NCBI RefSeq assembly: GCF_003334305.1
Contig: NZ_QOWS01000036.1
Length of the DNA stretch: 26,302 nucleotides
Reading direction: 5' to 3' (one strand)
From: Escherichia coli
GTDB taxonomy: Bacteria > Pseudomonadota > Gammaproteobacteria > Enterobacterales > Enterobacteriaceae
Shown here piece after piece: positions 404 through 958 of the stretch; position 1 is the stretch's first letter; every line of letters starts with the position of its first letter. A model generated the notes under the pieces. That model ran no database searches and was not told where the DNA came from. It was given only the letters and a program-made list of their open reading frames with translations. Position numbers and translations under genes: made by a program.

Positions 404-958
404 ATGTCTGATGTTTTACGCCCATACCGCGATCTTTTTCCACAAATCGGTCAGCGCGTAATGATCGACGATAGCAGTGTCGTGATTGGTGACGTTCGTC
501 TGGCTGATGATGTGGGGATCTGGCCGCTCGTTGTGATTCGTGGAGATGTACATTATGTACAGATCGGAGCACGCACCAATATCCAGGATGGCAGTATGTT
601 GCATGTCACTCATAAATCCTCGTACAACCCAGATGGCAACCCATTAACCATTGGCGAAGATGTCACTGTTGGTCACAAGGTGATGCTCCACGGCTGCACC
701 ATTGGCAATCGAGTTTTGGTTGGGATGGGCTCAATTTTACTTGATGGCGCAATAGTAGAAGATGATGTGATGATTGGTGCGGGTAGTCTGGTCCCACAAA
801 ATAAACGGCTGGAGAGCGGATATCTGTATCTCGGTAGCCCCGTCAAACAGATCCGCCCGTTAAGTGATGAAGAGAAGGCTGGGTTACGCTATTCCGCGAA
901 TAATTACGTGAAATGGAAGGACGAATATCTGGATCAGGGTAACCAGACCCAGCCTTGA
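404..958 (+). CDS. yrdA: hexapeptide-repeat (gamma-carbonic-anhydrase-like) protein YrdA, 184 aa
   Basis: ORF 77..958 trimmed to the ATG at 404 (MSDVLRPYRDLF...). Upstream extension would run across the rrn promoters. Repeated [LIV]-G-x-x-x-x hexapeptide pattern visible. Confidence 0.88.
   Translation: MSDVLRPYRDLFPQIGQRVMIDDSSVVIGDVRLADDVGIWPLVVIRGDVHYVQIGARTNIQDGSMLHVTHKSSYNPDGNPLTIGEDVTVGHKVMLHGCTIGNRVLVGMGSILLDGAIVEDDVMIGAGSLVPQNKRLESGYLYLGSPVKQIRPLSDEEKAGLRYSANNYVKWKDEYLDQGNQTQP

Follow-up and report, generated by a model that had tools for sequence, protein, structure and literature searches.

The convergent genes yrdA and yrdB of Escherichia coli share 25 nt of coding sequence at their 3′ ends. 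This tail-to-tail overlap has kept exactly the same length in almost every Enterobacteriaceae species sampled, apparently because each stop codon is embedded in codons of the partner gene. We consider it likely that the arrangement reflects compaction together with an extension of the YrdA tail, locked by the mutual embedding of the stop codons, and that Rho terminates transcription there. The regulatory effect of the overlap, if there is any, is probably small.

yrdA and yrdB share their 3′ coding ends

We analyzed a 26,302-nt stretch of E. coli DNA (RefSeq assembly GCF_003334305.1, contig NZ_QOWS01000036.1), here called the window, to which all positions refer unless stated otherwise. This stretch of the E. 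coli chromosome is located immediately upstream of rrnD. According to the sequence and the list of open reading frames, yrdA occupies positions 404 to 958 of the plus strand, encodes 184 amino acids, and ends with a TGA stop codon at positions 956 to 958. The yrdB gene occupies positions 934 to 1191 of the minus strand, encodes 85 amino acids, starts with GTG, and ends with a TGA stop codon at positions 934 to 936. The pair thus belongs to the convergent overlapping coding sequences, which lie on opposite strands and share at least 1 nt of their 3′ coding ends; the shared segment spans positions 934 to 958 on both strands. Its phase, named after the nomenclature of Lillo & Krakauer (PMC2174442), is 123:213, with codon position 3 of each gene opposite position 3 of the other. 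The initial annotation had described a 25-nt overlap made up of the last 8 codons of each gene. Sequence, open reading frames, and the RefSeq annotation of strain K-12 all bear out the overlap, and the codon count holds only if the stop is included: the contribution of each gene is its stop codon, 7 sense codons, and a single nucleotide of an eighth.

The geometry is the same in K-12 (yrdA, 3429236..3429790; yrdB, 3429766..3430023), where subtraction of 3428832 from a coordinate gives the window position. The two sequences are collinear across positions 380 to 1220, with 5 substitutions, all of them within the part that belongs to yrdB only. Strain E2865, which is 100% identical to the window over the yrdA/yrdB stretch, is annotated with the same overlap, and the locus is present in all 5426 complete E. 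coli genomes. A megablast search with 64 nt around the overlap matched 3712 of these 5426 genomes; the 28-nt exact word probably limited this search, which is uninformative on the rest. On the far side of yrdB, the stop codon of aroE (positions 1188 to 2006, minus strand) shares 4 nt (GTGA) with the yrdB start, which makes yrdB the 3′-terminal part of the aroE transcript. The yrdB gene is the last one of the same-strand cluster smf-smg-yrdD-tsaC-aroE-yrdB. An Rfam scan of the whole window at gathering thresholds gave nothing at yrdA/yrdB, and its only match was Alpha_RBS at positions 13607 to 13718. [quoted passage not shown]

The length of the overlap would be unsurprising in a single genome. 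For the 41 genes annotated in this region, antisense frames in phase 123:213 stay open for at least 7 codons from 75% of starts, with a median run of 17 codons, so that 25 nt is an overlap to be expected of convergent genes that abut. To judge conservation in related genomes, a check that the initial annotation had proposed, we collected 80 loci, one per species, from an alignment of diverse YrdB homologs; they span Escherichia, Salmonella, Citrobacter, Klebsiella, Raoultella, Enterobacter, Kosakonia, Kluyvera, Siccibacter, Franconibacter, and others. The two genes were convergent at all 80 loci, and the overlap was exactly 25 nt at 76 of them. A further locus (L063) at first appeared to have lost the overlap (−160 nt), but a frameshift inside yrdA, with the stop at its usual position, ruled out such a loss and brought the count to 77 of 80. 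The remaining exceptions are overlaps of 19 nt (L073 and L074) and 40 nt (L041). The overlap is thus kept in far more than the two genomes that are used as a filter against artifacts, and, as judged from these comparisons, it is its conservation and not its length that exceeds chance.

Each stop codon is locked by the partner gene

The two TGA codons occupy equivalent positions in the partner reading frames. The yrdA stop is matched by base 3 of yrdB codon 78 together with the CA of Gln79, and the yrdB stop by base 3 of yrdA codon 176 together with the CA of Gln177. Each stop therefore faces a sequence of the type xxT-CAR, i.e., any residue followed by Gln, and a shift of a stop would alter the partner protein, so that the geometry would stay put. 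The variability of these codons across species agrees with such a lock. The yrdB base that faces the final position of the yrdA stop has an entropy of 0, compared to 1.01 and 1.14 bits for bases 1 and 2 of the same codon (yrdB codon 78). On the other side, the yrdA base that faces the final position of the yrdB stop again has an entropy of 0, and bases 1 and 2 of yrdA codon 176 have 1.21 and 1.55 bits. Codon 78 of yrdB is represented by 11 different codons (for Asp, Ala, Ser, Thr, Tyr, Ile, Gly, His, Asn, and Val) that end in T without exception, while T is found at only 26% of the other yrdB third positions. In the 3 species with a moved yrdA stop, this codon is GAG. Likewise, 9 different codons are found at yrdA codon 176, and every third base is T. 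These patterns provide direct evidence, at the level of sequence comparison, that purifying selection holds both stops in position.

We found no sign of constraint beyond that imposed by the two proteins, since the remaining third positions inside the overlap (1.3 to 1.7 bits) are as variable as those outside; additional constraint at the nucleotide level was therefore rejected. Two Dam GATC sites, at positions 932 to 935 and 957 to 960, were also dismissed as a conserved feature. They are a product of Asp-Gln codons, and the Asp is often replaced, with a GAT codon in 47 of 76 and 30 of 76 species at the two positions.

The overlap appears to stem from an extension of the YrdA tail

Outgroup loci were fetched through representative YrdB relatives, and their geometry was checked on the DNA. 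A coding overlap of 4 to 46 nt was present at 6 of the 9 loci: Pantoea stewartii (46 nt), Edwardsiella tarda (28 nt), Rouxiella aceris (25 nt, with TAG stops), an Edaphovirga-like locus (13 nt), Leminorella grimontii (4 nt), and locus L091 (4 nt). At a hemF-aroE locus (L090) the genes abut (0 nt), and in Plesiomonas shigelloides and Limnobaculum xujianqingii they are separated by 11 nt. The 4-nt junction between aroE and yrdB was found at 7 of the 9 loci. By these sequences, the gene order is ancient, and none of the junctions leaves room for an intergenic terminator; a fixed length of the coding overlap, by comparison, is confined to Enterobacteriaceae.

The two proteins differ in how far their conservation reaches into the junction. 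In an alignment of diverse homologs, the C-terminal motif of YrdB, EDDQGWxWL[S/P], stands out as one of the best-conserved stretches of the protein, and its G-W-[VI]-x-[LI] core is kept in distant relatives. The conserved core of YrdA ends with KDEYL at L175 (position 931). Outgroup YrdA proteins keep K-[DN]-[DE]-Y-L and then continue with 2 to 12 unrelated residues, and residues 176 to 184 of the E. coli protein (DQGNQTQP) form a tail that is variable outside Enterobacteriaceae. The conserved YrdB end, together with the conservation of YrdA only up to L175, leads us to infer that the overlap is a YrdA tail that was extended across the yrdB end. A tight junction (−11 to +46 nt) is found in at least 6 families of Enterobacterales and at 2 more distant loci. 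Such persistence exceeds what might be expected under simple neutrality, and selection for coupling of the transcripts could lie behind it.

Both transcripts enter the partner gene and are limited by Rho

There is no intergenic DNA between the two stop codons. A scan gave no terminator-like site near positions 900 to 1000, and the overlap formed only weak folds on either strand (z, −0.3 to −1.6), with no U run. An intrinsic or bidirectional terminator at the junction was rejected on these grounds, and the initial annotation was right to state that an intergenic terminator is missing. With neither intergenic DNA nor an intrinsic terminator, each transcript must enter the partner gene, as it had also claimed, and published K-12 data corroborate this on both strands. 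Term-seq placed a plus-strand 3′ end at K-12 3429912 (position 1080), which is antisense to yrdB and 122 nt beyond the yrdA stop (Adams 2021, PMC7815308). No minus-strand Term-seq 3′ end is listed in the same study for K-12 3429100 to 3430299.

Rho termination regions were reported for both strands in that work, as 800-nt windows from a single bicyclomycin experiment and thus at coarse resolution. The plus-strand region lies at position 1340 (K-12 3430172), antisense to aroE, with a score of 5.02 (p, 2e-11); the upstream and downstream reads changed from 160/22 in untreated cells to 155/107 with bicyclomycin. The minus-strand region lies at position 1084 (K-12 3429916), inside yrdB, with a score of 2.48 (p, 1.8e-7) and reads of 98/79 untreated and 204/408 with bicyclomycin (PMC7815308). 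The downstream reads on the minus strand cover antisense yrdA, including an internal antisense RNA (aRNA) that starts at position 545. On the basis of these published data, the polymerases of both strands run on into the partner gene and are halted by Rho, at a distance of no more than a few hundred bases.

Candidate Rho loading regions follow directly upon each stop codon. The untranslated yrdA read-through RNA begins with a C-rich and G-poor stretch at positions 959 to 1036 (plus strand; C/G, 2.09), and the yrdB read-through RNA begins with another at positions 856 to 933 (minus strand; C/G, 1.92). Compared to antisense-of-CDS windows of this region, the C/G ratios of these first 78 nt past the stop rank in the top 4.4% for the yrdA strand and in the top 7.5% for the yrdB strand. 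The composition is thus of the kind expected of a Rho substrate, with an enrichment that is moderate and not decisive, and Rho loading on these stretches would be in line with it.

A hairpin inside yrdB coincides with the yrdA 3′ end

The RNA of the yrdA strand can form an 11-bp hairpin at positions 1043 to 1075 (1043 to 1053 with 1065 to 1075; plus strand), opposite yrdB codons 39 to 50. Its fold is stable (z, −5.05; none of 200 shuffled sequences was as stable) and is not followed by a U tract. The Term-seq 3′ end at position 1080 lies 5 nt past the stem. Such an end would fit a Rho-terminated transcript that was trimmed back to a stem-loop, a process described previously (Adams 2021, PMC7815308), with the hairpin possibly serving as a protective 3′ end. 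This coincidence raises the possibility of a terminator embedded in yrdB, in which selection would maintain the hairpin as the element that sets the yrdA mRNA 3′ end. Such an element would be compatible either with compaction or with an excludon. It might additionally act as a pause or collision site on the yrdB strand, similar to bidirectional terminators. The peak of the minus-strand Rho region lies 4 nt from the Term-seq 3′ end, and stem-loops between convergent genes have been found to position polymerase collisions (Wang et al. 2022).

The cross-species data on this hairpin point in both directions. Over all 80 species, 70% of the cells of the stem are paired, compared to 31 to 44% when the partners were slid by 1 to 3 columns. 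However, shuffling within columns still paired 66.8% of the stem, so that most of the pairing is due to conserved sequence, and a strong stem is retained in only about half of the species. Synonymous resampling of yrdB codons 37 to 55 gave a mean z of −1.36, with 28% of the species below −2, and N-terminal windows gave values of only −0.1 to −0.3. Codons 55 to 73, on the other hand, scored equally (−1.41) at a place without a mapped 3′ end, and all of these z-scores come from related species, which are not independent samples. In many species the hairpin is more stable than synonymous resampling predicts; this hint of a selected RNA element in yrdB is suggestive only. The absence of a U tract on either side also means that the hairpin is not a canonical intrinsic terminator. 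Taken together, we regard a selected terminator within yrdB as unlikely.

Mutual repression of the two transcription units is doubtful

The initial annotation had pointed to potential antisense interference between the two genes. The read-through in both directions on which this proposal was built stands; as for interference, the available data argue that it is weak. INTERFERENCE at yrdA/yrdB is unproven, and the indirect evidence is negative. In its strongest form, the proposal would make the pair a selected convergent excludon, whose terminator-free junction is kept because transcription of yrdA and of aroE-yrdB repress each other. Polymerase collision or cleavage of the RNA duplex by RNase III would then result in inverse expression of the two units. 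In the ExcludonFinder report (PMC12288877), yrdA-yrdB is one of 165 convergent excludons detected in no fewer than half of 58 MG1655 RNA-seq sets, and this listing, together with the published Term-seq 3′ end, identifies the pair as neighbors with overlapping transcripts. On the yrdA strand the overlap of the transcripts amounts to 122 nt or more, the tight junction is kept across the order, and a tested precedent, mscL/arfA, is located 8.6 kb away in the same window.

The data on double-stranded RNA do not favor this proposal. In the part of the p19 dsRNA survey covered here (PMC7373196), a dsRNA cluster was assigned to the 5′ part of yrdA (old coordinates 3427350 to 3427388; positions 496 to 534), where it is paired with the internal aRNA that starts at position 545. 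The accompanying table of 22-nt duplexes, to which abundance thresholds had been applied, lists none between this cluster and aroE and hence none at the 3′ overlap. That study also gives a 37.9-fold-lower dsRNA density in convergent than in divergent overlaps. The internal aRNA has a promoter with a −10 hexamer CATAAT at positions 552 to 557 (minus strand), and mutation of this promoter left a yrdA::lacZ fusion unchanged (Dornenburg et al. 2010), although that antisense RNA differs from the one expected at the 3′ overlap. Rho limits read-through on both strands, and a literature search for yrdA/yrdB yielded no reciprocal expression or perturbation data. Moreover, the length of the overlap varies outside the family, its free third positions carry no extra constraint, and YrdA and AroE/YrdB have no known functional link. 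Selection for mutual repression therefore appears quite unlikely to us.

A still more demanding version combines these elements. The spacer-free junction (−11 to +46 nt, from Enterobacteriaceae to Plesiomonas, Budviciaceae, and the 2 more distant loci) would itself be under selection. Having no terminator of its own, yrdA would depend on the C-rich Rho loading stretch embedded in yrdB and on the hairpin at codons 39 to 50, and YrdA would be inversely coupled in cis to the aroE-yrdB tail of the smf-tsaC-aroE cluster. We hold this combination to be improbable.

YrdA and YrdB are both genuine proteins

YrdA is a hexapeptide-repeat protein of the gamma-carbonic-anhydrase family. It matches PDB 3TIO_A with an E value of 2.5e-121 (3TIO and 3TIS are YrdA) and was crystallized through residue 184, while solved gamma-carbonic-anhydrase homologs mostly align only up to about YrdA residue 170 to 176. 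Its score against the NCBIfam model for gamma-carbonic anhydrase, NF050158, is 164.5 bits, below the equivalog cutoff of 250 bits. The sequence thus places YrdA in the gamma-class carbonic anhydrase/left-handed beta-helix family, an assignment of family membership only and not of an enzyme function. The protein has been detected on two-dimensional gels, and spermine at pH 8.5 has been reported to induce it.

YrdB is annotated by RefSeq as a DUF1488 protein. PF07369 was precomputed on homologs that are 96 to 100% identical and on the outgroup genes; 590 homologs were found, and all 120 of those listed carry this domain. A structural homolog is available (PDB 2GPI; E value, 5.9e-10). The yrdB gene is exactly 258 nt long at all 80 species loci, and its entropies at codon positions 1, 2, and 3 are 0.53, 0.37, and 1.14 bits across the 80 species; codon-position entropy gives a coding signature for both genes. 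In published work, yrdB mRNA was downregulated by antimicrobial peptides on arrays, and a yrdB deletion strain was viable.

The notion that the overlap is an annotation artifact, with one reading frame ending earlier or not being a real gene, could appeal to the small size of YrdB, whose function is not established and which has no NCBIfam model. However, the position of a stop codon cannot be miscalled, the yrdB stop is fixed in 80 of 80 species, and expression evidence exists for both genes; an artifact is excluded as far as sequence evidence goes, and we consider it almost certainly wrong.

Comparison with known convergent systems

For E. coli, 58 convergent overlaps have been counted (Lillo & Krakauer 2007, PMC2174442). 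The yrdA/yrdB pair resembles the conserved convergent overlapping pairs of prokaryotes in two respects: two real genes share their 3′ coding ends in several genomes, and the overlap appears to have arisen through extension of a frame past its former stop (Rogozin 2002 as cited in PMC2478687; PMC2174442). It differs from most convergent overlaps of at least 5 nt in its phase, since 123:213 is the least common one (18%; PMC2174442), and from most long convergent overlaps, which are kept in very close species only, in having held its length family-wide.

With convergent excludons (PMC12288877), the pair has in common that opposite-strand neighbors produce overlapping transcripts across a very short (here negative) intergenic distance. 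In contrast to these, the overlap includes coding sequence and not UTRs alone. The features that define an excludon, i.e., mutually exclusive expression and RNase III processing, are putative for yrdA/yrdB, and the part of the p19 survey covered here lists no dsRNA at the 3′ overlap. The mscL/arfA pair of the same window (mscL, positions 9192 to 9602, plus strand; arfA, positions 9599 to 9817, minus strand) also has a tail-to-tail overlap of coding sequences, of 4 nt, and also appears in the excludon list. There, the mscL 3′ UTR is complementary to the 3′ coding sequence of arfA, an arrangement that is enriched in Enterobacterales. Unlike the situation at yrdA/yrdB, an effect has been measured for this pair: mscL mRNA increased more than 2-fold in an arfA deletion strain and was restored in trans.

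Another parallel concerns the suppression of antisense and read-through transcription by Rho (Adams 2021, PMC7815308), in which antisense 3′ ends constitute the largest class of Rho termination regions. The C-rich and G-poor RNA past the stop, the bicyclomycin-sensitive read-through, and the 3′ end at a stem-loop are all shared, and yrdA/yrdB is not different in kind from other cases of Rho-dependent suppression in E. coli. Bidirectional terminators and programmed polymerase collisions (Wang et al. 2022, bioRxiv 10.1101/2022.10.23.513370) likewise concern convergent genes whose transcripts end close to a palindromic stem-loop. The stem-loop in yrdB, however, lies within a coding sequence, 85 nt past the junction, and lacks flanking A/U tracts. 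In addition, termination at yrdA/yrdB is bicyclomycin sensitive and hence Rho dependent, unlike that at bidirectional intrinsic terminators.

A model for the origin and the consequences of the overlap

Compaction and YrdA tail extension, the explanation that we favor, would account for these observations as follows. The conserved YrdA core ends at position 931, within a few bases of the yrdB end. From there, the yrdA frame of Enterobacteriaceae runs on for 9 residues over the antisense of the yrdB QGWxWL[S/P] codons, up to a TGA, and each stop would have become fixed by the partner gene. The order of these evolutionary events is the one that we infer from the comparisons above. As a spacer and an intrinsic terminator are both lacking, the polymerases of the two strands continue into the partner gene. 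Once the ribosome leaves at the stop codon, the untranslated C-rich RNA would become a substrate for Rho, and termination would follow within a few hundred bases. For yrdA, the stable 3′ end lies at the hairpin inside yrdB. The overlap between sense and antisense RNA is an unavoidable by-product of this layout.

Taken alone, the yrdA/yrdB overlap matters little. It does offer a clean illustration of how a convergent overlap freezes, in that a third codon position remains invariant while the amino acid of the same codon changes, and the constraint on this base is lost in the 3 lineages in which the stop has moved. If the two genes were found to regulate each other, the pair would constitute a well-conserved and easily engineered test case for the function of convergent coding overlaps in E. 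coli.

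RNA structure and antisense transcription at yrdA/yrdB

The RNA of the yrdA strand was more structured over yrdB codons 55 to 73 (window 973-1029, the RWDLEEEAE region) than expected from synonymous resampling, with a mean z of -1.41 across 80 Enterobacteriaceae species, which are related, so that their z-scores are not independent. No mapped 3′ end accounts for this structured stretch. An antisense RNA has been published within yrdA (window 496-557, minus strand), with a -10 hexamer CATAAT at 552-557 and a start site at about 545, and double-stranded RNA was captured by p19 at window 496-534, inside the gene (PMC7373196). 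Mutation of the promoter of this internal antisense RNA left yrdA::lacZ unchanged (Dornenburg et al. 2010). The minus-strand reads that are counted downstream of yrdB include a contribution of the same RNA.

The window begins within the rrnD leader. On the minus strand, the stretch 100-260 contains a P1-like promoter (TTGTGC at about 251-246, TATAAT at 233-228) and a P2-like promoter (TTGACT at 143-138, TAATAT at 121-116). A very abundant minus-strand "orphan" 3′ end with 85008 reads (K-12 position 3428984, window 152; Adams 2021, PMC7815308) lies between P1 and P2, within the small hairpin CCTGAAATTCAGG. The yrdA promoter region and the rrnD upstream region therefore overlap in space.

Other gene overlaps in the window

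A second convergent pair, mscL (9192-9602, plus strand) and arfA (9599-9817, minus strand), occupies 9192-9817 with a coding overlap of 4 nt. According to published work, mscL mRNA is lowered by arfA antisense RNA, and the K-12 annotation includes yrdG, an sRNA derived from arfA. Rho regions were reported at mscL/arfA on both strands (Adams 2021, PMC7815308), and the pair also appears in the ExcludonFinder excludon list (PMC12288877). Among genes on the same strand, smf shares 29 nt with smg in the K-12 annotation (3604-3632), more than the 1 or 4 nt that are usual for operon overlaps, as at rplW/rplD and aroE/yrdB elsewhere in the window.

Unusual loci, RNA families and contig boundaries

The contig of L054 (CACSKA010000021.1), one of the relatives' loci, is labelled "Chryseobacterium sp. 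18061" and carries an aroE-yrdB/yrdA arrangement typical of Enterobacteriaceae, including the overlap of 25 nt; its YrdB and YrdA are 70% and 83% identical to those of E. coli. The label most likely reflects assembly contamination or mislabelling. In Kluyvera genomosp. 3 YDC799 (CP022114.1; locus L063, 2734-3287), a frameshift near codon 110 splits yrdA into open reading frames of 122 and 69 amino acids, which points to either a pseudogene or a sequencing error; the yrdA stop and the 25-nt overlap are as usual.

A gathering-level Rfam scan of the whole window returned no match besides the Alpha operon ribosome-binding site (RF00140; 13607-13718, minus strand, 102.7 bits), located upstream of rpsM as expected. 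In dozens of cases among the relatives' loci (L005-L082), the locus sits on draft-assembly contigs of 25.9 to 26.7 kb that end beside yrdA, in agreement with the 26302 bases of the window. In many Enterobacteriaceae, the DNA between rrnD and the gspA side seems to assemble as a single repeat-bounded contig, and the window is therefore probably a complete draft contig.
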